NCBI RefSeq assembly: GCF_006716745.1
Contig: NZ_VFPP01000001.1
Location: forward strand, 5,155,386 to 5,219,385
DNA length: 64,000 nucleotides
Direction: 5' to 3'
Source: Saccharothrix saharensis
GTDB taxonomy: Bacteria; Actinomycetota; Actinomycetes; Mycobacteriales; Pseudonocardiaceae
Under the pieces are notes generated by a model. That model searched no databases. It was given only the letters and a program-made list of their open reading frames with translations, and was not told the DNA's origin. Of the stretch, positions 17,455 through 42,885 are shown piece after piece; positions within the stretch are counted from its first letter, which is position 1, and every line of letters starts with the position of its first letter. The position numbers and the translations under genes are program-made.

Positions 17455-17546
17455 GGCTCTCTGCTTATCGCCGCCCACCCCCACCCGCCACCGCGATCAC
17501 CCGTTCCGGTGGAATTCGCACCGGTCGGCGATGGGGGATGCGCGGT

Positions 17547-17589
17547 CGAGTTTGGTGGGCCGCCAGGGACTCGAACCCTGAACCCGAAG
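17547..17589. repeat. att-like direct repeat (partial 3' copy of tRNA-Lys)
   Basis: Identical to 26331-26373. Not a complete tRNA. Confidence 0.7.
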
Positions 17590-18053
17590 GTTGTAAATCT
17601 TGCTCGCTTGACGTCTGCCAATATTGTCCGTCGTCTGCTGCCACCTGCAGAATTTTCAATCGTGAACCGCCACTGTGTATAGATCGATGCGGTGCTCTAT
17701 CGTCGTTAGTTAGGGGTAACTGAGGGGCCTAACCCTGCTGCGGACATCGTCCGTCGCGTCCACTGCCTACCCTTTGACGTGTCGTCCACCTTCGTCTCGA
17801 CCTCTTAGATAGCAAGGTTATCGCTATCCGTTTTGTGATCAAACGACGATGAAGGTAGCTTGTGAACCACTGACCTGTGATGGTCTAGCGTAGGCGCGCA
17901 GTGGATATGAATCGTCCTCAAGTTGAAGACCGTGGATCTCTATCGACAAGTCTCGACAGTTCGTTACCAGGCGGGCGAATTGTTATGAGTTGTTGACAGT
18001 TCAAGCGTCTTGCCGAACACACGTTCGAATACGGGTAACGTGCTACACCCGAT

Positions 18054-20558: not shown

Positions 20559-20614
20559 TACATCTGTTGCCACCTATGTGGTGGACTGCGTGACGATGAC
20601 GATAAGATCACGTA

Positions 20615-21673
20615 GTGACCGCTACAGCGCCTACCGCAGTTGACTTGTTCGCCGGAGCCGGAGGGGCAACTCAAGGACTCCGAGATGCTGGCTTCAACGT
20701 AGTAGGAGCTGTGGAGTTCGATCCAGAAGCGTCTCGGTCTTACCGTCTGAATCACCCAAGAACTCGGCTTTGGCAATCTGATATACGATCGTTGCCAGCA
20801 GAACGGATGCGCATTGAACTAGGCTTGCGCATTCGTGAACTGACTCTCTTGAAGGCATGCCCGCCGTGTCAGGGATTTTCATCCCTTGCGGGTGGGCGAA
20901 GCATGGATGAAACGCGTAATGATCTAGTTCACCAAGTGGTGCGGTTCACTAGGGCTTTCATGCCTAAGGCTATTCTGCTAGAAAATGTTCCAGGTTTGGC
21001 GCGTGATAGACGGTTTACTGAATTGACCGAGAAGCTGAGCAAGCTTGGATACTCGTTCGGTAGTTACAAATTGAATGCCACAGTCTTCGGTGTTCCTCAG
21101 CGCCGAAACCGATTGGTTGTTCTCGGCATTAGAAGCCGGAAGGCGGTTATCTCTTCCGATATTTGGGAGATTCTGGGTCAGGGTTATGCGCCTGTCGCTC
21201 TTACTGCAGGCGAGGCTTTGCAAAATTTGTACAGCTTGGCTCGCAAGAATGACCCGCTCAATCGTCATCGTTCACTGTCGAAATCTACTGCCGAACGAGT
21301 GAAGGCGATTCCAGTCGGTGGTACGCGATTTGACCTGCCTCCGGAGCATCGTCTCCGCTGCCATAACGAAGTGGACAGTAAGGGGGGGCATCGAGCAACA
21401 GCCTCATACGGTCGAGTAAAGCTCGACCTACCAGCACCTACTATGACGACGCGCTGTACGACGCCTGCATGTGGTTCTTTCATTCACCCTATTGAAAATC
21501 GCGGCCTGACCTTGCGCGAAGCGGCATACTTCCAAACTTTTCCCGTAACGTATGACTTTCTGGGCTCTTACGAGTCGATCGAGCGCCAGATAGGAAATGC
21601 TGTCCCAGTTGAAATGGCTAAATATCTCGGGATTGCTGTGCTTAAGTCAGTACGTAGGGCTCGGTTGCTCTAA
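20615..21673 (+). CDS. dcm: DNA (cytosine-5)-methyltransferase
   Basis: Motif I DLFAGAGG, motif IV PCQGFS, motif VI ENVPGL, C-terminal QIGNAVPV. 352 aa. Low GC. Confidence 0.85.
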   Translation: MTATAPTAVDLFAGAGGATQGLRDAGFNVVGAVEFDPEASRSYRLNHPRTRLWQSDIRSLPAERMRIELGLRIRELTLLKACPPCQGFSSLAGGRSMDETRNDLVHQVVRFTRAFMPKAILLENVPGLARDRRFTELTEKLSKLGYSFGSYKLNATVFGVPQRRNRLVVLGIRSRKAVISSDIWEILGQGYAPVALTAGEALQNLYSLARKNDPLNRHRSLSKSTAERVKAIPVGGTRFDLPPEHRLRCHNEVDSKGGHRATASYGRVKLDLPAPTMTTRCTTPACGSFIHPIENRGLTLREAAYFQTFPVTYDFLGSYESIERQIGNAVPVEMAKYLGIAVLKSVRRARLL

Positions 21674-22120
21674 TTGCACGTTGGCAAGGCTGTGGGCTGG
21701 TCGATGCCGTCAGGCGTCGAGCTGTCCACAGGCGCGGCAGCCGAGCGCCATAACCACGCGGCCGAGTCGACCACCGCGCGCTCGTCTCAAGCCCTGAGGC
21801 CGGAAGTATCGTCGTCGAGCAGATGGGTAGATCTGTTCAAGCGGTTCTCTGGGGGCACTGGCCGTGGCCTCCGGCTGTTGTGGGCAGGTTTCGGTGCCTC
21901 GCGTGTCGCGCCCGTGGGCCGCCAGGCCCACTTGGCGCGACCGAAGACATCGCCGGAGCCTGCCCACAACAGCCCGCAAGGGCACGAACGGCCAGCGGCC
22001 CCGGAGGGGGCCGCCTTGATGAAGAAAAGAAACTCTGAACACCGTGGTCAGGCTGCCTCGGTGTCCGCTGGAGTTGATGCCACTGTCGCGTGGTGGGCGG
22101 TGATGGCGTAGGAGTAGGGC

Positions 22121-22768
22121 ATGGTCGCTGCCGTGGTGTTTGACGTGGGTGAGACGTTGCTGGATGACTCGCGGGAGTGGGGGGCATGGGCGGATTGGAT
22201 CGGGGTGTCTCGGCACACGTTCTCGACGGTGCTCGGGGCGGTGACAGCGGCAGGGCGGGATAACGCGGAGACGTTCCAGTACTTCCGGCCTGGGTTCGAT
22301 GTGGCTCAAGAGCGGCAGCTTCGGGAGCGGGCTGGGGTGGGTGAGCGCATCGAGGATCGGGACTTGTACCCGGATGTGCGGATCGGGCTGGCTCGGCTGC
22401 GGGAGGTCGGGCTATGGGTTGGGGTGGCGGGGAACCAGACTGCTCGGGCGGCGGAGTTGCTGCGGGGGTTGAGGTTGCCGGTGGATGGGTTGGCGACGTC
22501 TGGTGAGTGGGGTGTGGCCAAGCCTGCGGCGGAGTTCTTCGAGCGGGTGGTGGGGATGACGCCTGCGGTGGTGGCTGGTGATGTGCTCTACGTCGGTGAT
22601 CACCGGGACAACGATGTTGTGGCGGCGAAGGCGGCTGGGTTGCGTACGGCGCTGATCCGGCGTGGACCTTGGGGATACCTGTGGGCGGATGACCCGTTGG
22701 TGCGTCGGGACGCCGACTGGGTCATCGACTCACTGCACGACCTGCCGGAGCTGCTGGCGAACGGCTGA
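22121..22768 (+). CDS. HAD-superfamily hydrolase
   Basis: Motif I VVFDVGETLLD, Lys motif VAKP, motif IV GDHRDND. Confidence 0.6.
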   Translation: MVAAVVFDVGETLLDDSREWGAWADWIGVSRHTFSTVLGAVTAAGRDNAETFQYFRPGFDVAQERQLRERAGVGERIEDRDLYPDVRIGLARLREVGLWVGVAGNQTARAAELLRGLRLPVDGLATSGEWGVAKPAAEFFERVVGMTPAVVAGDVLYVGDHRDNDVVAAKAAGLRTALIRRGPWGYLWADDPLVRRDADWVIDSLHDLPELLANG

Positions 22769-22779
22769 GGCGTAGCCGC

Positions 22780-24240
22780 TCAGCGAGCGCCTGCCCAGGC
22801 GGCCAGGTCGAGTAGGCCGGAACTGAGTGACGGGTGGGTGCGTAGCAGCACGGACAGGGCTTGGCGGACCTGTGGATGGGCGCGCACGTGTTCAGGTGCG
22901 GCTTGGCGGGCGGCCTGCAAGCACATGTAGGCGTCTTCGTGGCGGCCGAGGTCGAGTTGGGCGCGGGCCAAGTCGATGTAGTAGTGCGAGCGGCGTTCGG
23001 CGGGTAGTTCGGCGGGCGGGTGCCAGGTGGAGGCTCGTTGGATGCCTGCGGCGTCTCGTAGCTCGGCGGCAACGGCCAGCTCGTGGATGCGCAGAGACGC
23101 GGGGCCGAAGGCGGTGCCGTGGTAGATGCCTTCGGGTGCGGCGTGGGCGGCGTAGCGGGCGGTGAGCAGGTGGTCGGCGGCGATGTCGGCTTTGCCTGCT
23201 CGGGCGGCGACGACCGCGGCTCGCATGTGGAGTGCGCCGAAGGCGGCTGCGGTGGGTGCCTGTTTCAGGTCGCGGGTCGGGAGTTGGTCGGCGGCGTGGT
23301 CCAGGGCGCGGGCGGCGGTGTGGAGGTCGCCGCTGGCGAAGAACGTTTCGGTGCGCACGTAGGCGACTGCGGCGAACAGTAGTGGGTTGTCGGCCTCGGT
23401 TGCTGTTGTGCGCATGAGGTCGATGAGGCGGGCCGACAGGTCGAAGTAGCGGTACTTGTAGGCCACGCCATCGGCGGCGCGTAGGGCCAGGGTCAGCAGG
23501 GATGCGACGTGGCGGCGGTCGGCTGGGTCGAGGAGTTGGCGGGCTCGGGCAAGTTCGCCGATTAGGGCGGGTAGGTGGCGGACGAGTTCGCCTTAGCGGG
23601 CTTCGAGCCGGTGGTTGTTCATGCGGGCGACGTCGGCGGCCAGCTCGGGAAGGCTTCGCGTCGGGCCGTCGTCGGGTAGGTCGAGGATGTCGAGCGCGCG
23701 GCGTAGGCGTGGGATGCCGACCTGCACGATGTCCAGCTCTTGAGCTGGTTGGGGTGGTGGCTGATCGGCCGGTGCCCACGACTGGTGGGGCGAGTAGGCC
23801 GGGCTCGGGTCGACGGTGCGGCCGGCGTAGAGGTTGCGGACGTCGTGGACTTCGCGCGCGGTGCCGTCGAACCATCGGAGGTGGCGCGGGACGTGGAGGG
23901 CGTCGCACCAGCGTTCGAGGCGTTCGAGGTCGGTGACCGGGCGGCGGGAGCGTTCGACTTCGCTGACGCGGCCTTGGGTGAGGTCGAGCCAGACGGCGAG
24001 GGTGGCTTGGGGGACGGTCGGGTTCTGGGCCTGGCGGTAGGCGCGGAAGACCTGGCCGATGTTGCGGGACTCGAACGCCTCGCGGATGGTGGGCTTGGCC
24101 CAGAACTCCGGCGGCAGCGTCGGGGCGTGGAGCGTAGAAGCCGCGGTGCAGCGGCCACAAAGTTCGCCCCGGTTGTCCTTGGCCAGCAAGGTGTCACACG
24201 TGCGGCAGCGTCGCTTGGACGTGGTCACGTGGTCGTTCAC
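22780..24240 (-). pseudogene. XRE-family HTH regulator (actinomycete ~450-aa type) interrupted by an in-frame TAA
   Basis: N-terminal part 24240-23596 carries the HTH (TLAVWLDLTQGRVSEVER). TAA at 23593-23595. The same frame continues through 23466-22780 with the C-terminal helical domain. Confidence 0.55.
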
Positions 24241-24383
24241 CCCTTGGTCGAGCTGTGCCTACTTCGGAGTGTAACTCGCCGATTACGGTGCTGAGCTGCG
24301 GTTAGTGGTGACGGCGATCTTCGATCAGTCATTGGTATGGGATCGGCGTTGCGTCCGAGTGAATCTGGTCGAGCAAGTCCCAG

Positions 24384-24734
24384 GTGTACACGGAGGTCGA
24401 ACCCATGGGGATGTACTTGCTCTTCCAGCCGGAGGAGGACGCCGAGTCGGCGTTGGTGGAACGGGCACAGGGGCATCCGTCCCTGGTGATCGCGTCCGGT
24501 GACGCGCGGCTGACGGTGCAGATCGCTGGTCGTGAAGGTGGGGCGCAGCTCGCGATCAGGTTCGCGCGTGAGCTGGCCGAGTCGGCTGCGCAGTTCGCCG
24601 ACCGGTGCGAAGCCCTCACCAAGCTCGCACCGCTCGACTTCGAGCACTTGAGCGCTCTGGTGGGCGCGACGCCGGACGAGGTGAACGCGCTGACGGTCCC
24701 TGCCGGTGATGACGTGAAGGAAGTCGAGCGGTGA
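24384..24734 (+). CDS. hypothetical protein
   Basis: 116-aa ORF divergent from the XRE gene and overlapping the next ORF (ATGA). No recognisable domain. Confidence 0.3.
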   Translation: MYTEVEPMGMYLLFQPEEDAESALVERAQGHPSLVIASGDARLTVQIAGREGGAQLAIRFARELAESAAQFADRCEALTKLAPLDFEHLSALVGATPDEVNALTVPAGDDVKEVER

Positions 24735-25066
24735 GTGAGGTCGACGGCTTGAAGCCGTTGTGCGACGAGACGGAGTTCGCGGCCCTGTTGGAGACGATGG
24801 TGGTGACCTCTGCGCCGCGGGTGTTTGCGGTGGTGCAGGAGTTCGGTGAACGCCTCGACGGCTGGGTCGCTGGGTGGGGCTTCGCCTTCGAGGACCGCGC
24901 GGAGGTCTTCTCGGTCCATGACCACTCCCGCATGAGTCTGGGCAAGCCGGAGAACGCGTTGCACCTGTTCAGCAGCGCGCGCAATCAGTTGACGGCGCGG
25001 CTGGTGTGGCTGCCCGACGTCGGCGAACGACCGGACGTCTCGGAGGTGGCTACCTGCTCGGTGTAG
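24731..25066 (+). CDS. hypothetical protein
   Basis: 111-aa ORF translationally coupled to the previous one. Confidence 0.3.
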   Translation: MSEVDGLKPLCDETEFAALLETMVVTSAPRVFAVVQEFGERLDGWVAGWGFAFEDRAEVFSVHDHSRMSLGKPENALHLFSSARNQLTARLVWLPDVGERPDVSEVATCSV

Positions 25067-25186
25067 CGGTCGAGGTCCGGGGTTCGGCGCCGGCAAGGGG
25101 GCGTGATGTCTGAAGAGGACGAGTGGACGGCGGAGCACTGGCGGGATCTCCCCAGGCCTCCGAACTCCTGGTGCGCCTGGAGGAAC

Positions 25187-25585
25187 TCAGTGATCGGCTG
25201 AGTCGGGTTGAGGCTCGGCTGGCGTGGTCCCGAGAATCTCAGCCTCGACAGCGGCGACGCGCCGGCTGAGGTCGTCCAGGACCGTGTTGATGCGGTCGAA
25301 CATCTGCCGAAGCTCATGCGGTGAGGGCACGTCGTCCCCCGCATGGGCTTCGGGCTTCTTCACCACGATCGTGCCTTCGCCCTGGCGGGAGATGACCAGT
25401 CCTTCGTTGCGGAGCTGGTCCAGTGCCTTCTGCAACGTCATCACGGCGCGGCCGTACTTGGTCTGAAGCTCGGTCAGGGACGGGAGCTTGTCGCCGACCT
25501 CGACCTCGTCGGACGCGATGTAGTGGCGCAGGTCGTCTGCGATCTGCTGGTACGCAGGTCGGCGATCGGTTGCGTCTGGGCGCAT
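25187..25585 (-). CDS. GntR-family winged-helix transcriptional regulator (KorSA-like position in an integrative element)
   Basis: HTH region LPSLTELQTKYGRAVMTLQKALDQLRNEGLV. 132 aa. Confidence 0.6.
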   Translation of the reverse strand: MRPDATDRRPAYQQIADDLRHYIASDEVEVGDKLPSLTELQTKYGRAVMTLQKALDQLRNEGLVISRQGEGTIVVKKPEAHAGDDVPSPHELRQMFDRINTVLDDLSRRVAAVEAEILGTTPAEPQPDSADH

Positions 25586-25660
25586 GCACAGGCTGCAGCG
25601 ATGGAGCTAGCACCGCTGGAAGTCACTCGATCGGCCTAGTGTCTCTAATGCCTTTACTAG

Positions 25661-26275
25661 CTATGTGCTTCGACCGCGGTTGAGGTTGTCGACCTGCTCA
25701 AGAAGCGGGACCAGGACGAGCAGGCCGTCAAGGACGACCTGCCGGACCTCGTCCGGTTCTTCCTGGGCACCGGAGAACGGACCGAGGAGGCACTGGGCGC
25801 GTACTGGCCTGACTTCAACGAAGAGGCGCGGGAACTGGCCATGTCTGGCAACGTCATCCGCGCACGCGGTCGAGGCCGGGTCGTGAATCGGGGCAAGACG
25901 GAGAATGCTGAACGACCGATCCCGCTGCCGGACTGGTGCGTCGTCATGCTGGTGGGGAGGCGCTCGAAGGCTTCGGACCTCGACGGCCCGATCTTCCCCA
26001 GCTCGACCGGCACGATTCGTGAGGCTACGAACGTCCGCAATCGCGCGTGGAAGCCGTTCATCACCCGGGCCGGGTACGAATGGGTGACTTTCCGAACCTT
26101 TCGGAGGACCGTCGCCACGCTGCTGGACGAGGCGGGTCTGACGGCCCGGCAGATCGCCGACCTGCTCGGTCACTCGCGGCCGTCGATGACGCAGGACGTG
26201 TACATGGGCCGCAGGTCACCCGGTCGGGCGGCGGCGGACGCGCTGGGAGCAGTCATCACCGTAAGTGAGGGGTAA
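25661..26275 (+). pseudogene. int: tyrosine recombinase/integrase, 5'-truncated (C-terminal catalytic domain only)
   Basis: In-frame stretch after the TAG at 25658-25660 contains box I (FLGTGERTEEAL) and box II (HSRPSMTQDVYMGRR). Only ~205 codons remain; the N-terminal arm-binding and core-binding domains are absent. Confidence 0.65.
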
Positions 26276-26330
26276 ACGGGGGATCCGACTCCGCTGAACC
26301 CTGGTCCAACCGCTGGACCAGCGAGTTTGG

Positions 26331-26373
26331 TGGGCCGCCAGGGACTCGAACCCTGAACCCGAAGATTAAAAGT
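26331..26373. repeat. att-like direct repeat overlapping the 3' end of intact tRNA-Lys
   Basis: Identical to 17547-17589. Confidence 0.7.
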
Positions 26374-26412
26374 CTCCTGCTCTGCCAATTGAGCTAGCAG
26401 CCCGTGCTCGAC
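26337..26412 (-). tRNA. tRNA-Lys (anticodon UUU), CCA encoded
   Basis: Cloverleaf derived by hand: acceptor GGGCTGC/GCGGCCC, D-arm GCTCAATTGGCAGAGC, anticodon stem GGAGA/TCTTC with loop CTTTTAA, T-arm CAGGGTTCGAGTCCCTG. Confidence 0.85.
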
Positions 26413-29083: not shown

Positions 29084-30340
29084 ATGTGCGCCGACCCACG
29101 ACCCGGAGGAGCGGCGACGGTGACCGACCACGTGACGCAGGCGTACCTGGACGACGAGAGCCTGCACGGGGTGATGGCGGGGCTCGACCTGCCGCCCGCC
29201 CTGCGCGCCGCGTACGGCCACCGGCTGGTGAACCGGCCGTTCTTCCTGGACGAGTACACCGCGCACGACGTCGCGGCGGACGTCATGGACTTCTTCGAAC
29301 TCCTCTTCTCCTTACCGCGCAGGATGTTCGACGGCAGCTTCACGCGGTTCGCCGAAGCGCTGGGCATCCCGCCCGCCGAAGCCGCGATCATGGGTTCCGA
29401 GCGCCCGCCGACGCACGGTCGCGCGGACATCTACCGGGTCGGCGACGCGTTCCGGCTGCTGGAGATCAACGCGGGCTCGCAGCTCGGCGGCCCCGACCTC
29501 GGCGAGTTGGCCCGCGTCATCCAGCAGGACGCCGGCTTCGAGCCGTTCGTGCGGGAGCACGACCTGCGCCACGTCAACCCGGTCGAGAAGCTGCTGGACG
29601 CCGTTGGCCGCGACCGCACCATCGCGTTCCTCGAAGAGGGCGGGATGCTGACCAGGTTCGCCAAGGGGTTCGAGAGCTTCCGGGAGACCTGCGCGCGGTC
29701 GGGCGTGGACGTGCTGCTGGGCGAGCTGCACGAGCTGACCGAGCGCAACGGCCACCTCCACCTGCACGGCACGAAGCTCGACGTGGCGGTCCGGTACTTC
29801 AACGCCGCCCAGGCCGTCGGTTACGCCGAGCTGCTCGCCAAGGGCCACAAGACCGAGCTCTACACGCCGTTGTCGAGTTACTACTACGGCAGCAAGTCGA
29901 CCATCGCGCTGTTGTCCGAGCACCGCGAGGTGCTGACCGACGACGAGAAGGCGTTGGTGGACCGGCTGGTGCCGTGGACCCGGTACGTGCGCGACGTGCC
30001 GCGCGACCGGCTGCGCGCGGACCGGGAGAACCTGATCGTCAAGGCGGCGGGCGGGTTCGCGGGCGCGGGCGTGCACCCCGGTTGGCTGCTGACGGACCGG
30101 GAGTGGGCGCGGGTGCTGGACGACGTCGCGGGGCAGCCGTACGTCGTGCAGGAACGAGTGCGGCCCACGCCCGACGTCGTGCCCGGCGACGACCGGCCGT
30201 GGTTGACGACGTGGGGCTGGTTCGTGACCGACCAGGGCTTCGCGGGCATGAGCATCCGGTCCATGCCGTTCGCCGACGGCGCCGTGGTCAGCTACGCCGG
30301 CAACCCGGCGACGAAGGTCTCCGGCCTGCTCGTGCACTGA
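29084..30340 (+). CDS. hypothetical protein, possibly ATP-grasp/glutathionylspermidine-synthetase-like fold
   Basis: 418 aa, 14 bp downstream of tetR. No motif I can name with certainty. Confidence 0.3.
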   Translation: MCADPRPGGAATVTDHVTQAYLDDESLHGVMAGLDLPPALRAAYGHRLVNRPFFLDEYTAHDVAADVMDFFELLFSLPRRMFDGSFTRFAEALGIPPAEAAIMGSERPPTHGRADIYRVGDAFRLLEINAGSQLGGPDLGELARVIQQDAGFEPFVREHDLRHVNPVEKLLDAVGRDRTIAFLEEGGMLTRFAKGFESFRETCARSGVDVLLGELHELTERNGHLHLHGTKLDVAVRYFNAAQAVGYAELLAKGHKTELYTPLSSYYYGSKSTIALLSEHREVLTDDEKALVDRLVPWTRYVRDVPRDRLRADRENLIVKAAGGFAGAGVHPGWLLTDREWARVLDDVAGQPYVVQERVRPTPDVVPGDDRPWLTTWGWFVTDQGFAGMSIRSMPFADGAVVSYAGNPATKVSGLLVH

Positions 30341-30420
30341 CCGGCGCGGTCCGACCGCGTTGCGTCATTTCCCCCGGATCACCGCCGAAAACGGGTTAGG
30401 GTCCCGTGAAAGGGGGGTAC

Positions 30421-31002
30421 ATGGGGGAGTTCTTCGCGGCGTCGCTGGGATTCCCGGTCGCGGTGCTGAGCGTGCTGCTGGTCGTCGTGGTGGCTTACTG
30501 GCTGCTGGTGGCCTTCGGCGCGGCGGACGCGGACTGGGTCGAGCTGGACATCGGCGGCGTGCCCGCGACCCTGGGGCTCTCCCTGCTGATCGCCGTGTCG
30601 TGGTTCGCGTGCCTGGCGGGCGTCGAGCTGCTCGGTCCGACCTCGACGCCCGCGCGCCTGGGCGTGCTGGGCGGGTCGCTGGTCGTCGGCCTGGTGCTGA
30701 CCCGGTTCGCCATGACGCCGTTGAAGCGGCTGTTCCCGGAGGACCCGCCCGCGTCGCGCCTGGACTTCGTCGGCCGCCCGTGCGTCATCCGCACGGGTCG
30801 GGTGACGCGCACGTTCGGCCAGGCGGAGGTCACCGCCGCGGACGGCTCGTCGGCGGTCGTGCAGGTGCGGCAGCCGGGCGAGGACCCGCTGACGGCCGGC
30901 ACCACCGCGCTGATCTTCGACTACGACGTGGACGGCGAGTTCTTCTGGGTCGCGTCCCTCGACTTCGGACACGACCCGACTCTCACACGGGGGGACCACT
31001 GA
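30421..31002 (+). CDS. NfeD/YqiJ-like membrane protein (flotillin partner)
   Basis: Strong SD aaagggggg before ATG 30421. 3-4 TM helices then a soluble beta-rich C-terminus. Stop overlaps the flotillin start (TGATG). Confidence 0.6.
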   Translation: MGEFFAASLGFPVAVLSVLLVVVVAYWLLVAFGAADADWVELDIGGVPATLGLSLLIAVSWFACLAGVELLGPTSTPARLGVLGGSLVVGLVLTRFAMTPLKRLFPEDPPASRLDFVGRPCVIRTGRVTRTFGQAEVTAADGSSAVVQVRQPGEDPLTAGTTALIFDYDVDGEFFWVASLDFGHDPTLTRGDH

Positions 31003-32999
31003 TGGACGTCATCACCACCGGGTTCGGCATTCTCGTCGCCGTCGTCCTGGTCGTCGTCATCGGCCTGCTGATCCTGATCAGCCGCCTGTTCCGCAAGATC
31101 GACCAGGGCAAGGCGCTGATCATCTCCAAGGTGCGCAAGGTGGACGTGACGTTCACCGGCGCCGTGGTGCTGCCGGTGCTGCACCGCGCGGAGATCATGG
31201 ACATCTCGGTGAAGACGATCGAGATCCGCCGCGCCGGGCAGGAAGGCCTGATCTGCCAGGACAACATCCGGGCCGACATCCGGATCACGTTCTTCGTGCG
31301 GGTGAACAAGACCGTCGAGGACGTCATCAAGGTCGCCCAGGCGATCGGCACCGCCCGGGCGAGCGACGAGCAGACGTTGCAGGAGCTGTTCAACGCCAAG
31401 TTCTCCGAGGCGTTGAAGACGGTCGGCAAGCAGCTCGACTTCATCGACCTCTACACCAAGCGCGACGAGTTCCGCGACCGGATCATCCAGGTCATCGGCA
31501 CCGACCTCAACGGCTACAGCCTGGAGGACGCGGCGATCGACTACCTGGAGCAGACGCCGATGGCGCAGCTCAACCCGTCGAACATCCTCGACGCCCAGGG
31601 CATCCGCAAGATCACCGAGCTGACCGCGATCGAGCACGTGCGCACGAACGAGTTCACCCGGCACGAGGAGAAGGAGATCACGCGCCAGAACGTCGAGGCG
31701 CGCGAGGCGATCCTGGAGCTGGAGCGCCGCCAGGCGGACGCGGAGATCAAGCAGAAGCGCGAGGTCGAGACGATGCGCGCCCGCGAGGAGGCCGAGATCG
31801 CCAAGGTGCAGGCCGAGGAGCGCCTCAAGGCCAACACCGCGCACATCCGCACGGACGAGCAGCTGGGCATCCAGACCGAGAACAAGGCGCGGGAGATCGC
31901 GGTGGCGGAGAAGAACCGCGAGCGCGTGATCGCGATCGAGACCGAGCGCATCGAGAAGGACCGGATGCTGGAGGTCATCGGCCGGGAGCGGGAGACCGAG
32001 CTGACCCGGATCGCCGCGGACAAGGAGCTGGAGGCCGAGAAGCGGTCCATCGCCGAGGTGGTGCGCGAGCGCATCGCGGTGGAGAAGACCGTGGCCGAGC
32101 AGGAGGAGATCATCAAGCGGCTGCGCGCGGTCGAGGAGGCCGAGCGGGAGCGGCAGACCGTGGTGATCAAGGCCGAGGCGCAGGCGCAGGAAGGCCTGGT
32201 CAAGGACATCAAGGCGGCCGAGGCCGCCGAGCAGGCCGCGAAGTTCAAGGCGCGCGAGGAGCTGCTGCTGGCCGAGGCGCGGCAGCAGGCCGCGGAGCTC
32301 GACACCCGCGCGATGATCCGGCTGGCCGAGGGCAAGCAGGCCGAGGCGGCGGCGTCCGGTCTCGCCGACGTGCAGGTGCGCGAGCGGGACGCGGAGGCGA
32401 TCGAGAAGGTCGGTCGCGCCGAGGCCGTGGTGGAGAAGGAGAAGGCGCTGGTGGCCGCGCTCGCGATCCGCGAGAAGCTGAAGGGCGAGGCGGAGGGCCT
32501 GGCGGACAAGGCGGGCGCGATGGCCGCGCTGGACGAGGTGACCCGCGAGCACGAGGAGTACCGGCTGCGGCTGGAGGCGGACAAGGAGGTCCGGCTCGCC
32601 GGGATCGACGTGCAGCGGCAGGTGGCCGAGTCGCAGGCGCTGGTGCTGGCGGCGGGCCTGGAGAAGGCCGACATCGACATCGTCGGCGGCGACAGCATGT
32701 TCTTCGACCGGATCGTCGGCGCCATCACGATGGGCAAGCAGGTCGACGGGTTCGTGGAGCACTCCGACGTCGCGCAGACCCTCGCCGGGCCGTGGCTGAA
32801 CGGGACGGCGAGCTTCACCGACGACATCGGCAGGCTGCTCGGCTCGATCGGCACCGGTGACGTGAAGAACCTGACGGTGTCCGCGCTGCTGCTCAAGCTG
32901 ATCAACTCCGGCGGGCCGGACGAGGGCAAGCTGCGCGAGCTGCTGGCCGCCGCGCAGCGCCTGGGCGTGGCCGAGCGGCCGGTCGCCTCGCTGTCGTGA
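31002..32999 (+). CDS. flotillin-family SPFH (band-7) protein with extended E/A/R/K coiled coil (YqiK/FloT-like)
   Basis: N-terminal TM and an SPFH domain (ISKVRKVDVTFTGAVVLPVLHRAEIMDISVKTIEI...), then ~350 aa of EA-rich repeats and a C-terminal flotillin tail. The 879-aa ORF in the track is an upstream frame extension. Confidence 0.8.
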   Translation: MDVITTGFGILVAVVLVVVIGLLILISRLFRKIDQGKALIISKVRKVDVTFTGAVVLPVLHRAEIMDISVKTIEIRRAGQEGLICQDNIRADIRITFFVRVNKTVEDVIKVAQAIGTARASDEQTLQELFNAKFSEALKTVGKQLDFIDLYTKRDEFRDRIIQVIGTDLNGYSLEDAAIDYLEQTPMAQLNPSNILDAQGIRKITELTAIEHVRTNEFTRHEEKEITRQNVEAREAILELERRQADAEIKQKREVETMRAREEAEIAKVQAEERLKANTAHIRTDEQLGIQTENKAREIAVAEKNRERVIAIETERIEKDRMLEVIGRERETELTRIAADKELEAEKRSIAEVVRERIAVEKTVAEQEEIIKRLRAVEEAERERQTVVIKAEAQAQEGLVKDIKAAEAAEQAAKFKAREELLLAEARQQAAELDTRAMIRLAEGKQAEAAASGLADVQVRERDAEAIEKVGRAEAVVEKEKALVAALAIREKLKGEAEGLADKAGAMAALDEVTREHEEYRLRLEADKEVRLAGIDVQRQVAESQALVLAAGLEKADIDIVGGDSMFFDRIVGAITMGKQVDGFVEHSDVAQTLAGPWLNGTASFTDDIGRLLGSIGTGDVKNLTVSALLLKLINSGGPDEGKLRELLAAAQRLGVAERPVASLS

Positions 33000-35900
33000 C
33001 CGCGGCGGTGGAGCCTTCGGGCGCGGCGTTGGAGGCGGGCACCTACGAGGTGCTGCGGGCCCGGCTGGCCGAGCAGGCGGCCGGGCTCGCCCGCCGGGCG
33101 GAAGCGCTGAACGCGCGTCGGCTGGAGGCGTTCGGCAGCGCCGAGCTGACGTTGCTGGGCACCGAGCGCATCCGCACCGAGCACAACTGCGTGCCGCGGG
33201 ACTGCGTTTCCCTTTCCGTCGCCGAGGGGCGGGGATCCCCGGTGGCCGGGCTGATGCTGTTCGGCTACAACGTGTTCATCGGCCTGAAGCCGGAGACGAC
33301 GGTCGACGACGTGTTCTCGCTGCACCGGTTCGCCCGCGACGGTGACGCGTTCCGGTTCGAGGACGCGGCGGACGACGAGCTGCCCGGCCTGCTGCGCGAC
33401 CCGCGGTTCGAGCGGGACTTCGCCGAGCTGTACCGGTACTACCGCGACACGCGCCTGATCCAGCTGCGCCGGGTCGAGGGCCGGTTGCTGGCGGTGTTCC
33501 AGACCGGCGCGCGCATCGGGGACATCCGGGTGCTGCGCTGGCGGGTCGGCGTGGACGGCGCGGTGGAGTACCTGGACAACCGGGGCGAGCGCGACCACGT
33601 GTTCCCGCCGTCGCACGACTTCGAGTGGGTCGTGACCGGCCGCGAGCACCACGTGCTCGGCCGCCACCCGCACATCTCGATCGAGGACGAGGTGTTCGTC
33701 GAGACCATCGGCGGCGACCTCACCATCAAGGTGGAGGACAACACCGAGACCGGCGAGGGCGTGTACACCGAGCCGGTGGACGAGCCGCTGCAGTCGCTGG
33801 CCGACGGCGACGTGCAGTACGCGCGGGTCGGCTCGCTGATCCTGCTGCGCATCCGCCCGTACAACGAGACCGCGTGGCGGCACCTGGTGTTCAACACCCG
33901 CACCCGGTCCGTGGTGCGGCTCGACGGCATCGGCCAGGCGTGCCAGCGGCTGCCCGAGGACCAGGGGCTGATCTTCCCCGGCGGCTACTACCTGGCCACG
34001 GGCGTCAGCAAGACGTTCGACACCCCGGTGGACGAGCTGGAGTTCGAGCGGGTCATCCGCTCCACCAACGGCGAGGACGTGCTGTACGTCTTCCACGCCC
34101 GCCGCGACGGCCGGTCGCTGCTGCTGCCGTACAACGTGATCCGCAAGGAAGTGGCGAACCCGCTGTCGTGCCACGGGTACTCGCTGTTCGACGACGGCAC
34201 GCTGGTCGTGTTCCGCGCGATGAGCGACGAGCCGACCCGCGTGCACCCGATGCAGGTGTGGCAGACGCCGTACCTGTCCGACGCGTACGCCGCCGCGCAG
34301 CCCGCGGGCACGGGCCCGTTGGCCCGGGTCGGGAACGCCGACCTGGTGCGCGGCATCTCCGACTGCCTGTCGGTGACCCGAGTGGTCGGCGAGATGGCGC
34401 CGTCGGTGGCGGTGTTCGAGGACCTGATCGCCTCGTGCACCAGGGTGTTCGACGCCTACCACTGGCTGGGCGACCCGGAGCTGGAGGACCTGCGCGCGCC
34501 GTTGACGCAGGTGCGTGCGACGGCCGAGCAGGTGCTGGACGAGTTCGAGACCGTGCAGGCGCTGACCGACCAGGCGGCGGCCGCGGTGGTCGAGGCGGAC
34601 GAGCGGATCGCGTCGCTGGTGCGCCGGGTGCGCGGCGAGGTGCCGAGGACCGCGGACGCGTGGGTGCGGCAGTTGGCCGACCTGCGGCAGGCGCAGGGCC
34701 ACCTGGTGACGTTGCGGGAGATGCGGTACGCCGACGTGGCGCGCATCGACTCGCTGACGGCGTCGCTGCGCGAGGAGCTGGGCGGCACGGCGCAGCGCGC
34801 GGTCGAGCACCTGCGCCGCGACGACGCGTTCGCGGGCTACCACGAGCAGGTCGAGGCGCTGGTCGGCAAGGCGGATGCGATCGGCACGGTCGCCGAGGCC
34901 GAGCCGGTGGTGGCGGAGCTCGCCGAGCAGCAGCGCGGCCTGGAGGTGCTGACCGAGGTCGTCGGGTCGCTGGACATCGCCGACGCCACCGTGCGCACGT
35001 CGATCCTGGAGCGGATCGGCGAGGTGCTGGGCGGGCTGAACCGGGCGCGGGCCACGGTGGACGGTCGCAGGCGCGCCCTGGCGGCCACCGAGGGCCGGGC
35101 CGAGTTCGCCGCCGAGTTCGCGCTGCTGGGCCAGGCGATCACCGCCGCGTTGGCGGTCGCGGACACCCCGCAGCGGTGCGACGAGCAGTTGGGCCGGCTG
35201 CTGCTCCAGGTGGAGAACCTGGAGTCGCGGTTCGGCGAGTTCGACGACTTCCTGGCGCGGCTGGGCGGCAAGCGGACCGACGTGTACGAGGCGTTCTCGT
35301 CGCGCAAGCAGGCGTTGCTGGACGACCGGGCGCGGCGCGCGGACCGGCTCTCGTCGTCGGCCGACCGGATCCTGGCGAGCGTGACCAGGCGGGTGGCGTC
35401 GCTGGCGTCGGTGGACGAGGTCAACACCTACTTCGCGTCCGACCCGATGGTGGGCAAGCTCCGCTCGGTGGCCGACGAGCTGCGGTCGCTGGGCGACCAG
35501 GTGCGGGCCGAGGAGCTGGACGGGCGGGTGCTGGCCGCGCGGCAGGAGGCGGGCCGCGCGCTGCGCGACCGGCTGGACCTGTTCGACGGCGACACGATCC
35601 GGCTCGGCCGGCACCGGTTCGCGGTGAACACCCAGCCGGTGGACCTGACGCTGGTGCCGAAGGACGGCGCGCTGTCGTTCGCCATCACCGGCACGGACTT
35701 CCGCTCGCCGGTGCGCGACCCCGCGTTCGCCGACACCAAGCCGTTCTGGGACCAGCTGCTGGTGTCGGAGACGGCCGAGGTGTACCGGGCCGAGCACCTG
35801 GCCACCTCGATCCTGGCGACGCACCCGGTGGACGCGCTGCACGTCGCCGTCACCGAGGAGCGGCTGCCCGGGCTGGTGCGGCAGGTGGCCGAGTCCAGGC

Positions 35901-37870
35901 TGGACGAGGGTTACGAGCGCGGCGTGCACGACCACGACGCGGCACGCATCCTCGACGTCCTGCTGCGGGTGCACGCGGGCGCGGGGGTGCTGCGGTACCC
36001 GCCCTCGGCGCGGGCGGCGGCGCAGCTGTTCTGGGCTTCGGCCGACGAGGACGTGCGGGCGGTGCTCGAACGGCGCGCGGTGTCGTTGGGGCGGGCACGG
36101 GCGGCGTTCGGGCACACGACGGCCATCGACGAGCTGTGCGCGGAGCTGGCCGAGGCGGCCGGTGACCCGTTGGCGGGCGAGTACCTGTTCGAGGAGCTGT
36201 GCGGCGCCCCGTCCGGGTTCGCCACGAGCGCCGGGGCGCGTGCCCTGGTGGACGCGTTCCACCGCGCGCTGGGCGGGCGGAAGGAGTTCGACGACGACCT
36301 GCGCGCGGTGGCGGACCCGTCCTCGCGGCGCCGGTTGGTGGAGGGCTGGTACGAGGCGTTCCTGACCGGCTCGCCCGACCGGGACCGGTACCTGCCGGAC
36401 CTGCCGGAGGCGGTGGCGCTGGAGCTGTGCCGCGACCTGCCGCGGCACGAGTCCTCGGCCCAGCTCACGGCGACCGTGGACGGCCTGCTCGGCACGCACC
36501 CGCGCGTCGTCGACCGGTCGTTGGCGTTCCGGCTGGACGAGCTGCTGGCCCGCACGCGGGCGTTCCGCGAGCAGCGCGTGCCCGCCTACCGGGCCTACCA
36601 GCGGCGGCGCAACGAGGTCGTGGCCGCCGAACGGGCGCGGCTGCGGCTGGACGAGTACCAGCCGAAGGTGATGAGCGCGTTCGTGCGCAACCGGCTGCTG
36701 GACGAGGTGTACCTGCCGCTGATCGGCGACAACCTGGCCAAGCAGCTCGGCGCGGCGGGTGACGGCAAGCGCACCGACCAGATGGGCCTGCTGCTGCTCA
36801 TCTCACCGCCCGGCTACGGCAAGACCACGCTGATGGAGTACGTGGCCAACCGGCTCGGCCTGGTGTTCGTCAAGGTCAACGGCCCGTCGCTGGGCCACGA
36901 GGTGACGTCGGTCGACCCGGCGGACGCGCCGAACGCCACCGCGCGGCAGGAGGTCGAGAAGATCTCGTTCGCGCTGGAGGCGGGCAACAACGTGCTGCTG
37001 TACCTGGACGACATCCAGCACACGTCGCCGGAGCTGCTCCAGAAGTTCATCTCGCTGTGCGACGCGCAGCGGCGGATGGAAGGCGTGTGGGACGGCGGCA
37101 CGCGCACCTACGACCTGCGCGGCAAGCGGTTCGCGGTGTGCATGGCCGGCAACCCCTACACCGAGACGGGGCAGCGCTTCCGCATCCCCGACATGCTCGC
37201 CAACCGCGCCGACGTGTGGAACCTGGGCGACGTGCTGTCCGGGCGCGAAGAGCTGTTCGCGTTGAGCTACGTCGAGAACGCGCTCACGTCCAACCCGGTG
37301 CTGGCGCCGCTGTCCACCCGCGACCGCGGCGACGTGGAGCTGCTCGTGCGGATGGCGCGCGGCGAGGACGTGCGGGCCGACCGGCTCGCGCACCCGTACT
37401 CGCCGGTGGAGCTGGAGCAGGTGCTGTCCGTGCTGCGCAAGCTGGTGCGGGTGCAGGAGGTCGTGCTGGCGAACAACCAGGCGTACATCGCCTCGGCCGC
37501 CCAGTCCGACGCGTCGCGCGTCGAGCCGCCGTTCAGGTTGCAGGGCTCCTACCGGAACATGAACAAGCTGGCGGAGAAGGTGGTGCCGGTGATGGACGAC
37601 GCGGAGCTGGCGGCGGTGATCGACGACCACTACGCGGGCGAGGCGCAGACCCTGACCTCCGGCGCGGAGGCGAACCTGCTGAAGCTGGCCGAGTTGCGCG
37701 GCACGCTGACCGAGGAGCAGGCCGCGCGGTGGGCCGCGGTGAAGGCCGCCTACGTCCGGGCCCAGGCTCTCGGCGGCGCGGACGACGACCCGACGTCCCG
37801 CACGGTCGGCGCGCTGTCCCTGCTCACCGACCGGGTGGGGTCGGCGCTGGACCGCCTGGCCGACCGCTGA
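32996..37870 (+). CDS. 1624-aa multidomain protein with C-terminal MoxR/dynein-like AAA+ ATPase module; N-terminal ~1250 aa uncharacterised
   Basis: GTG start overlapping the flotillin stop (GTGA). Walker A LISPPGYGKTT, Walker B VLLYLDDIQH, sensor-1 AVCMAGNP. A predicted beta-rich N-region and a long helical middle region. Confidence 0.7.
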   Translation: MTAAVEPSGAALEAGTYEVLRARLAEQAAGLARRAEALNARRLEAFGSAELTLLGTERIRTEHNCVPRDCVSLSVAEGRGSPVAGLMLFGYNVFIGLKPETTVDDVFSLHRFARDGDAFRFEDAADDELPGLLRDPRFERDFAELYRYYRDTRLIQLRRVEGRLLAVFQTGARIGDIRVLRWRVGVDGAVEYLDNRGERDHVFPPSHDFEWVVTGREHHVLGRHPHISIEDEVFVETIGGDLTIKVEDNTETGEGVYTEPVDEPLQSLADGDVQYARVGSLILLRIRPYNETAWRHLVFNTRTRSVVRLDGIGQACQRLPEDQGLIFPGGYYLATGVSKTFDTPVDELEFERVIRSTNGEDVLYVFHARRDGRSLLLPYNVIRKEVANPLSCHGYSLFDDGTLVVFRAMSDEPTRVHPMQVWQTPYLSDAYAAAQPAGTGPLARVGNADLVRGISDCLSVTRVVGEMAPSVAVFEDLIASCTRVFDAYHWLGDPELEDLRAPLTQVRATAEQVLDEFETVQALTDQAAAAVVEADERIASLVRRVRGEVPRTADAWVRQLADLRQAQGHLVTLREMRYADVARIDSLTASLREELGGTAQRAVEHLRRDDAFAGYHEQVEALVGKADAIGTVAEAEPVVAELAEQQRGLEVLTEVVGSLDIADATVRTSILERIGEVLGGLNRARATVDGRRRALAATEGRAEFAAEFALLGQAITAALAVADTPQRCDEQLGRLLLQVENLESRFGEFDDFLARLGGKRTDVYEAFSSRKQALLDDRARRADRLSSSADRILASVTRRVASLASVDEVNTYFASDPMVGKLRSVADELRSLGDQVRAEELDGRVLAARQEAGRALRDRLDLFDGDTIRLGRHRFAVNTQPVDLTLVPKDGALSFAITGTDFRSPVRDPAFADTKPFWDQLLVSETAEVYRAEHLATSILATHPVDALHVAVTEERLPGLVRQVAESRLDEGYERGVHDHDAARILDVLLRVHAGAGVLRYPPSARAAAQLFWASADEDVRAVLERRAVSLGRARAAFGHTTAIDELCAELAEAAGDPLAGEYLFEELCGAPSGFATSAGARALVDAFHRALGGRKEFDDDLRAVADPSSRRRLVEGWYEAFLTGSPDRDRYLPDLPEAVALELCRDLPRHESSAQLTATVDGLLGTHPRVVDRSLAFRLDELLARTRAFREQRVPAYRAYQRRRNEVVAAERARLRLDEYQPKVMSAFVRNRLLDEVYLPLIGDNLAKQLGAAGDGKRTDQMGLLLLISPPGYGKTTLMEYVANRLGLVFVKVNGPSLGHEVTSVDPADAPNATARQEVEKISFALEAGNNVLLYLDDIQHTSPELLQKFISLCDAQRRMEGVWDGGTRTYDLRGKRFAVCMAGNPYTETGQRFRIPDMLANRADVWNLGDVLSGREELFALSYVENALTSNPVLAPLSTRDRGDVELLVRMARGEDVRADRLAHPYSPVELEQVLSVLRKLVRVQEVVLANNQAYIASAAQSDASRVEPPFRLQGSYRNMNKLAEKVVPVMDDAELAAVIDDHYAGEAQTLTSGAEANLLKLAELRGTLTEEQAARWAAVKAAYVRAQALGGADDDPTSRTVGALSLLTDRVGSALDRLADR

Positions 37871-42590: not shown

Positions 42591-42663
42591 GTCCCCATCG
42601 TCTAGCGGCCTAGGACCCCGCCCTTTCAAGGCGGTAGCGCGGGTTCGAATCCCGTTGGGGGCA
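42591..42663 (+). tRNA. tRNA-Glu (anticodon UUC)
   Basis: Acceptor GTCCCCA/TGGGGGC; anticodon stem-loop CCGCC-CTTTCAA-GGCGG; T-arm GCGGGTTCGAATCCCGT. Confidence 0.85.
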
Positions 42664-42699
42664 CGTAGTACAGTGAGACAGCAAGGCAGAAGTGAGCAA

Positions 42700-42773
42700 G
42701 GCCCAGTGGCGCAGTTGGTTAGCGCGTCGCCCTGTCACGGCGAAGGTCGCGGGTTCGAGTCCCGTCTGGGTCG
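42700..42773 (+). tRNA. tRNA-Asp (anticodon GUC)
   Basis: GGCCCAGTGGCGCAGTTGGTTAGCGCG-TCGCC-CTGTCAC-GGCGA-AGGTC-GCGGGTTCGAGTCCCGT-CTGGGTCG. Confidence 0.85.
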
Positions 42774-42808
42774 CAAGGCAGTTCGGCCGGTTGGTCGAGC
42801 CGCTACCT

Positions 42809-42885
42809 GGCCAGGTAGCTCAGTTGGTACGAGCGACCGCCTGAAAAGCGGTAGGTCGGCGGTTCGACCCCGCCCCTGGCCACCA
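42809..42885 (+). tRNA. tRNA-Phe (anticodon GAA), CCA encoded
   Basis: GGCCAGGTAGCTCAGTTGGTACGAGCG-ACCGC-CTGAAAA-GCGGT-AGGTC-GGCGGTTCGACCCCGCC-CCTGGCCACCA. Confidence 0.85.

Follow-up and report, generated by a model that had tools for sequence, protein, structure and literature searches.

A conserved module of a YqiJ-like membrane protein, a flotillin-type protein and a DUF3686-family AAA+ ATPase in Saccharothrix saharensis

We analysed a stretch of 64,000 nucleotides (nt) from Saccharothrix saharensis (contig NZ_VFPP01000001.1, positions 5,155,386 to 5,219,385; hereafter the window), in which three consecutive genes, here called A, B and C, encode a YqiJ/YuaF-like membrane protein, a protein with the features of YqiK/FloT-type flotillins and a 1624-residue AAA+ ATPase. 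The three genes are one functional module, which is strongly conserved, and the window copy is an ordinary ortholog of it. The arrangement is far beyond chance: its core of B and C recurs in 86 of the 86 related loci that include sequence upstream of C. Our best explanation, to which we give a probability of about 0.55, is that C encodes a cytoplasmic AAA+ machine for remodelling a flotillin scaffold, on which it docks, in membrane-stress maintenance. The window thus carries the abbreviated form of a system that has already been described, by purely computational means (Ravi et al., mSystems 2024, PMC11237479; preprint 2020).

The module in the window and its conservation

The genes and their junctions are as follows (positions are those of the window):

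30421-31002, + strand: gene A, 193 residues, YqiJ/YuaF-like membrane protein (open reading frame, hydrophobicity scan, family alignment, hhalign)
31002-32999, + strand: gene B, 665 residues, YqiK/FloT-type flotillin (Pfam Band_7, hhalign, composition and transmembrane scan)
32996-37870, + strand: gene C, 1624 residues, GTG start, soluble DUF3686-family AAA+ ATPase
31000-31004, + strand: A/B junction TGATG, in which the stop of A and the ATG of B share 1 nt
32996-32999, + strand: B/C junction GTGA, 4 nt common to both genes, with the GTG start of C and the TGA stop of B

The window is actinobacterial DNA with about 72% guanine plus cytosine (GC), and its closest protein matches are in Saccharothrix and Actinosynnema. 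The GC content at third codon positions (GC3) is 0.87-0.97 in the frames of A, B and C, the expected coding signature in a genome with 72% GC. The ATG of gene A at 30421 is preceded by the purine-rich GAAAGGGGGG (30408-30417). A scan for sigma-70 promoters and terminators around A-B-C gave nothing informative in such high-GC DNA. A preliminary description of this DNA had reported three co-directional genes joined by the two overlaps listed above, and these are present as claimed.

The relatives of gene C are numerous. In a protein library clustered at 90% identity, 6,404 of the 8,000 scored candidates matched at E<=1e-10, and 1,411 representatives at 50% identity matched at E<=1e-3. The family is found in at least 588 species genomes of GTDB. 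We collected 90 related loci, 80 from a genome scan and 10 from individual look-ups of proteins and plasmids; 86 of them include sequence 5' of C, and the other four end at its start. They come from at least six phyla: Actinomycetota, Myxococcota, Acidobacteriota, Clostridia (a metagenome-assembled genome), Deinococcota and Gammaproteobacteria (Simiduia, Psychrobacter, Proteus, Vibrio and the Pseudomonas plasmid pQBR103).

A homolog of B lies directly 5' of C, on the same strand, in all 86 loci with upstream sequence. This answers the question, raised in the preliminary description, of whether homologs of C occur mostly away from flotillin genes: they do not. A homolog of A lies 5' of B in 73 of the 86. 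Since A is missing in 13 loci and B in none, the B-C pair is the invariant core. The genes flanking the module vary between loci. All-versus-all clustering of the open reading frames of the collected loci revealed no other conserved gene, and, shadow frames of A-C aside, the largest further cluster covered 14 loci.

The junctions are less constant than the gene order. Tight translational coupling, from which the preliminary description argued, is not a general property of the system: only 16 of 82 loci have the 4-nt overlap of B and C, which is lineage-specific. Many actinobacterial loci have overlapping or very short B-C junctions, and the gap is of 40-330 nt in Streptomyces and in non-actinobacterial loci. 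Among actinomycete genera of several orders, identity is 60-77% for C and 71% on average for B. The identities of B and C co-vary over loci (r=0.90), a correlation that is confounded by phylogeny.

The flotillin-type protein

The product of gene B matches the Pfam profile Band_7/SPFH at residues 32-175 (nt 31095-31526, E=3.3e-7). When we compared an alignment of 15 members of the B family with Escherichia coli YqiK using hhalign, the probability was 99.9% (E=3e-31) over 392 columns with 29% identity. The protein has a single N-terminal transmembrane helix in the transmembrane scan and a 320-residue coiled coil rich in E, A, K and R (residues ~201-520, nt 31602-32561), which is followed by a C-terminal region. 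The Pfam Flot domain (PF15975) was not detected in gene B, and searches of the PDB by sequence and by profile gave no match to it. Judged by these comparisons, gene B is a flotillin of the YqiK/FloT type. StlP (SCO2834) of Streptomyces, met in the literature search for experimental work, is a different, stomatin-like SPFH protein.

The YqiJ-like protein

Gene A encodes three hydrophobic segments (residues ~1-38, 42-74 and 80-98 in the hydrophobicity scan) and a C-terminal, beta-rich soluble domain (residues ~115-180, nt 30763-30960). Its family aligns with E. coli YqiJ in hhalign (probability 80%, E=1.4e-5), and two of the 22 family members match Pfam YqiJ_N weakly. The matches of the family to NCBIfam were spurious, with low complexity only. 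The preliminary description had presented A and B as an NfeD/flotillin pair, and the flotillin half of this claim holds. Among the Pfam families that it expected in the three proteins, SPFH was found in B and AAA_5 in C, whereas NfeD (PF01957) gave no hit to gene A even at E<=10 and matched none of the 22 family members. These results suggest that gene A is best named YqiJ/YuaF-like, and that "NfeD" fits it only in the loose sense of YqiJ/YuaF.

The 13 loci that lack A, and five more in which A is cut before the C-terminal beta domain, all belong to one Streptomyces group:

L034-L037, L041, L042, L048, L052, L054, L056, L066-L068, L070, L074, L077, L078, L080: Streptomyces loci with A absent or truncated

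B and C are intact in these 18 loci, which indicates that the YqiJ-like partner is dispensable for the B-C pair in that Streptomyces lineage.

Domain organisation of the ATPase

The features of gene C are listed by their position in the window, with the residues of the protein in brackets:

33086-34462, + strand (31-489): DUF3686, Pfam E=2.4e-222
34559-35572, + strand (522-859): helical rod of spectrin-like three-helix bundles, from the predicted model
34823-35074, + strand (610-693): DUF7902, within the rod, Pfam E=9e-33
35597-36640, + strand (868-1215): conserved region with a small beta unit, a helical domain, a beta unit and a helix, from invariant columns, alignment block and model
36683-37585, + strand (~1230-1530): single AAA+ module, from Pfam and invariant columns
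36812-36829, + strand (1273-1278): Walker A, GYGKTT
36995-37012, + strand: Walker B, LLYLDD, followed by IQH (1334-1342 including IQH)
within 37139-37156, + strand (1385-1387): sensor-1, GNP, preceded by CMA
37202-37213, + strand (1403): putative arginine finger, NRAD, its role assigned from the motif pattern
37544-37555, + strand (1517): putative sensor-2, GSYR, its role likewise assigned from the pattern

The first ~1250 residues of the protein had been said to match no family; they match DUF3686 and DUF7902. Structure prediction, a check proposed with that claim, suggests that they fold into a helix, a beta-propeller and then a spectrin-like rod. The AlphaFold2 model of residues 1-520, built from a 48-sequence alignment, has a long helix (residues 11-46) and a propeller (residues ~52-423), with a mean predicted local distance difference test score (pLDDT) of 89.3 and a predicted template modelling score (pTM) of 0.88. 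Foldseek matched the modelled propeller to 171 PDB entries at E<=1e-3, of which the best 50 are generic beta-propellers or propeller-containing chains; the matches include Elp1, DCAF1, paraoxonase, sialidase and prolyl oligopeptidase. In the model of residues 521-1230 (pLDDT 89.6), the helical rod is followed by a small beta unit, a helical domain and a second beta unit.

The conserved region at residues 868-1215 has no structural match. A helix in its helical domain opens with E-G-Y-x-x-G-[VI]-H-D-x-D-A (residues 971-982, nt 35906-35941), a near-invariant motif; E925, R931 and R1006 are invariant too. The motif may be a binding or catalytic site.

Pfam AAA, AAA_22 and AAA_5 match residues 1262-1393. 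The motifs GYGKTT, LLYLDDIQH and CMAGNP are where the preliminary description had placed them. In a 17-sequence alignment (31-77% identity), K1276, T1277, D1338, D1339, N1386, R1404 and R1520 are invariant. Hence, with its Walker A, Walker B, sensor and arginine residues conserved, gene C is presumably catalytically active. The hydrophobicity scan found no transmembrane segment in it. The AAA_5 match scores 25.8 bits (cut-off 22) and spans positions 2-127 of the 139 in the profile. The C family aligns weakly with E. coli RavA (hhalign probability 6.7%, E=0.0055, 80 columns) and has only the P-loop region in common with FtsH. Searches of the PDB with gene C and with its family profile gave P-loop-level matches only (Rix7, p97, RuvB); gene C has no solved relative. 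The MoxR/dynein-like class proposed earlier for the AAA+ module is plausible but unproven.

Accessory genes in other taxa

Several of the collected loci outside Actinomycetota carry further genes beside the module:

Simiduia, L084, 3961-5260 and 13239-13781: DUF2170 (CesT-like) and PspA, then A-B-C, with a Zn-ribbon protein on the 3' side
Vibrio campbellii, L091, 12843-14621: A-B-C, then a phospholipase D-like (PLD) protein and TelA
Proteus, L090, 2582-4362: LemA and a TPM-domain protein adjoining the module, divergently transcribed
pQBR103, L088, 65-3119: DUF2491, DUF350, DUF1190 and a glutathionylspermidine synthase (polyamine-type), then A-B-C
Psychrobacter, L085, 14829-17309: a gene with SIR2 and STAND-NTPase domains just 3' of the module on the opposite strand, a defence-type architecture

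The juxtaposition with a SIR2-STAND gene was seen in none of the other loci. The accessory genes PspA, CesT-like, PLD, TelA, LemA/TPM and polyamine are all membrane- or envelope-themed and, as far as their annotation goes, point to membrane stress and not to DNA repair or phage defence.

Functional interpretation

All the loci examined have B and C side by side, B is a YqiK-type flotillin, and the transmembrane segments number three in A, one in B and none in C. A membrane-associated assembly is the most economical reading, and on this point the preliminary description stands. The domain architectures, the intact ATPase motifs, the membrane topology, the obligatory linkage of B and C, and the membrane-stress accessory genes elsewhere were all observed in silico. 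In our proposal, the product of B, anchored by its one N-terminal helix, would most likely join the three-helix product of A in an oligomeric SPFH scaffold or cage that sits on the cytoplasmic side of the membrane. The product of C would be a soluble protein of ~180 kDa, with a propeller-tipped, spectrin-like arm on one AAA+ module. It may oligomerise through its AAA+ domain and dock on the flotillin scaffold by its N-terminal helix, its propeller or its rod. ATP hydrolysis could then power the assembly, disassembly or turnover of the scaffold, or work on the clients that it holds, and scaffold remodelling would contribute to the maintenance or repair of membranes under stress. We infer that the three proteins interact physically, in what oligomeric state they do so, that they have a remodelling activity and what triggers it.

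A bolder version of this proposal makes the DUF3686 ATPase the dedicated ATP-driven engine for remodelling or disassembling flotillin, and PspA/ESCRT-III-like proteins where these are joined to the module. It would be an analogue of Vps4, or of FtsH within HflK/C, in which the GVHDxDA domain provides a new way of recognising the scaffold or lipids, or a new catalysis. This is tentative and on balance rather doubtful. If true, it would give bacteria an analogue of Vps4 or of FtsH-in-HflKC, which they were thought to lack.

Several points weigh against a flotillin-remodelling machine. The Walker B motif of the C family is hhhhDD, with D1338-D1339 invariant, instead of the usual DE, which may mean that ATP hydrolysis is slow, regulated or regulatory. 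We see no motif in gene C that resembles the pore loops of typical unfoldases, so disassembly of the threading type is not indicated. The comparisons with AAA_5, RavA, FtsH and the PDB do not settle its AAA+ subclass, and the GVHDxDA region could hold another activity that dominates the biology. The operon in the window includes neither PspA nor another stress gene. Our literature search found no paper mentioning DUF3686 or PF12458, and no experimental study of the A-B-C module.

In a reasonable variant of our explanation, C would be a MoxR-type assembly chaperone for a client complex, with the flotillin microdomain as a platform, and it would act on the clients and not on the scaffold. We consider this unlikely. 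The AAA_5 match covers nearly the whole profile, and the pattern after Walker B (NP, NRAD, GSYR) resembles, by our reading of the motifs, that of the MoxR/ChlI type. MoxR ATPases are usually accompanied by a VWA-domain partner; no such partner and no candidate client gene is conserved near gene C, and the alignment with RavA is weak. In favour of a chaperone, stabilisation of unfolded proteins has been reported for FloA-NfeD of Staphylococcus aureus (PMC11222466). An anti-phage or conflict system is a further alternative, which the preliminary description had left open. In such a system C would act as the NTPase that senses, by means of its propeller, or switches, and infection would be aborted by membrane disruption through the flotillin and YqiJ-like proteins. 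Defence systems commonly combine membrane partners with a large NTPase that has repeat or propeller domains. The SIR2-STAND gene of Psychrobacter, the few copies on megaplasmids and a restriction-modification-like islet of low GC ~10 kb 5' of the module in the window (see below) are compatible with this. Yet PADLOC (PADLOC-DB v2) identified neither A nor B, and matched C only marginally to IetA (E=0.0019, over 30 P-loop residues). There were no matches in 50,697 phage records, and the 13 matching plasmid records, among 72,556, were mostly megaplasmids, chromids or mis-filed chromosomes. Moreover, we recognised no effector domain, the conservation of B and C is unusually high for defence genes, the flanking genes are ordinary metabolic and regulatory ones instead of defence islands, and those accessory genes that recur are of envelope-stress families. 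These results, those of the PADLOC, phage and plasmid searches in particular, make a defence function improbable.

The database name of gene C suggests yet another function. Most of the matches listed for gene C, in more than 6,000 protein clusters (90% identity), are called "DNA repair ATPase" by NCBI, and the Pfam description of DUF3686 reads "ATPase involved in DNA repair"; the adjacency to flotillin would then reflect a membrane-tethered DNA transaction. There are also weak matches to RuvB_N and RuvB, but these are confined to the ~45 residues that surround Walker A, and their scores of 18-22 bits fall far below the cut-offs (282-299). We detected no nuclease, helicase or DNA-binding domain in gene C, its neighbourhood holds no conserved repair gene, it is obligatorily partnered with membrane proteins, and a literature search returned no paper backing the name. 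The N-terminal region, for which the preliminary description had considered membership of a well-characterised DNA-repair family, matches only DUF3686 and DUF7902, with no support for repair beyond the database name. We thus regard a role in DNA repair as very improbable, and infer that the name was inherited from the automatic annotation of a long coiled-coil ATPase. "Flotillin-associated AAA+ ATPase" is a better name than "DNA repair ATPase", for which we found no evidence. That three unrelated genes were simply packed together in one genome is hardly credible: this is refuted by the neighbourhood survey, in which B and C are adjacent in all 86 loci with upstream sequence, across several phyla and amid unrelated flanks.

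Bacterial flotillins are widely studied, and their mechanism is disputed. To our knowledge, none has an established partner that consumes energy. The gene C family, which in at least 588 species of six or more phyla is always encoded beside a flotillin, presents itself as an obvious candidate for such a partner, and offers a tractable genetic handle on flotillins.

Genomic context of the window

The genes around A-B-C in the window encode an Exo_endo_phos protein, an FAD oxidoreductase, a 418-residue protein without a family, an Excalibur protein and an MpaB-like oxygenase, and these flanks are common only to the closest relatives, Saccharothrix and Actinosynnema. The gene for the 418-residue protein (29084-30340, + strand) has a strong coding GC3 and ends 80 bp 5' of gene A. 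It has neither a Pfam match nor an assignment of the NCBIfam kind and is conserved only in the closest Saccharothrix and Actinosynnema genomes; it is outside the module. We rejected its assignment as a polyamine gene of the glutathionylspermidine-synthase type (as in pQBR103), given the lack of a Pfam hit and of BLASTP similarity.

An islet of low GC (52-55%, against a background of ~72%) occupies positions 18054-21673 of the window (context 17500-26400). It encodes an 834-residue GHKL-type ATPase (HATPase_c_3) and a C-5 cytosine DNA methylase, and close to it are an HTH_31 regulator (23593-24240, - strand) and a tRNA-Lys (26328-26403, - strand). It looks like a horizontally acquired restriction-modification or defence-like element, unconnected with the flotillin module. 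A cluster of tRNA-Glu, tRNA-Asp and tRNA-Phe genes lies at 42591-42885 (+ strand).

Comparison with known systems

Genes A and B have the same order as yqiJ-yqiK of E. coli and yuaF-floT of Bacillus subtilis, with a small transmembrane protein followed by a flotillin; B is homologous to YqiK and A to YqiJ. The E. coli K-12 operon ends after yqiK, whereas the module in the window adds the 1624-residue ATPase. A blastn search of 5,426 complete E. coli genomes with a Proteus probe, which is of limited sensitivity, found no relative of C. A survey of SPFH proteins in Pseudomonas aeruginosa makes no mention of the ATPase.

Published work describes SPFH proteins as large membrane-attached cages or rings, with HflK/C enclosing the AAA+ protease FtsH, and NfeD-type partners as binding SPFH oligomers. 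HflK/C-FtsH likewise couples an SPFH membrane scaffold to an AAA+ ATPase. This is an analogy only, as the systems are not homologous: gene C, unlike FtsH, has no protease domain and no transmembrane anchor, and shares the P-loop region alone. Vps4-ESCRT-III and PspF-PspA are also cases in which an AAA+ ATPase is genetically tied to a membrane-remodelling scaffold, and our module is joined to pspA in some Proteobacteria. Gene C is not a homolog of Vps4 or PspF, lacking an MIT domain and the motifs of sigma-54 activators, and bacteria, according to a 2025 review, appear to have no Vps4-like ATPase. The MoxR/RavA-type ATPases (AAA_5) share with gene C a weak full-length AAA_5 match and a similar layout of motifs. 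They differ from it in the VWA partner, which is not conserved near C, in the poor similarity to RavA, and in the N-terminal extension of 1,230 residues that is unique to the C family.

The preliminary description took such a partner to be unprecedented in flotillin operons, which is incorrect. The closest counterpart is the operon described by Ravi et al. (PMC11237479) in a survey of PspA neighbourhoods. It consists of a YqiJ/YuaF transmembrane protein, a Band-7/flotillin protein and an ATPase with beta-propeller, coiled-coil and AAA+ regions, is often joined to PspA and sometimes includes phospholipase D; the order is given in their Table S3 for Dokdonia donghaensis. The same authors found abbreviated operons of flotillin and YqiJ/YuaF, "in some cases" with the ATPase, to be widely distributed. 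The window has the three components in identical order, in the abbreviated form without PspA; the CesT-PspA dyad, PLD and the polyamine genes are all missing from it. Gene A corresponds to the three-helix protein encoded first, gene B to the flotillin, by its Band_7 match, its similarity to YqiK, its transmembrane helix and its coiled coil, and gene C to the AAA+ ATPase with propeller and coiled coil in the third position. Ravi et al. do not name DUF3686 and report no experiments. Homologs of DUF3686 occupy the contexts that they describe (linked to CesT/PspA in Simiduia and to PLD in Vibrio), a context that suggests, indirectly, that their ATPase may be of the DUF3686 family. Their comparative genomics, independent of ours, led to the same functional reading.

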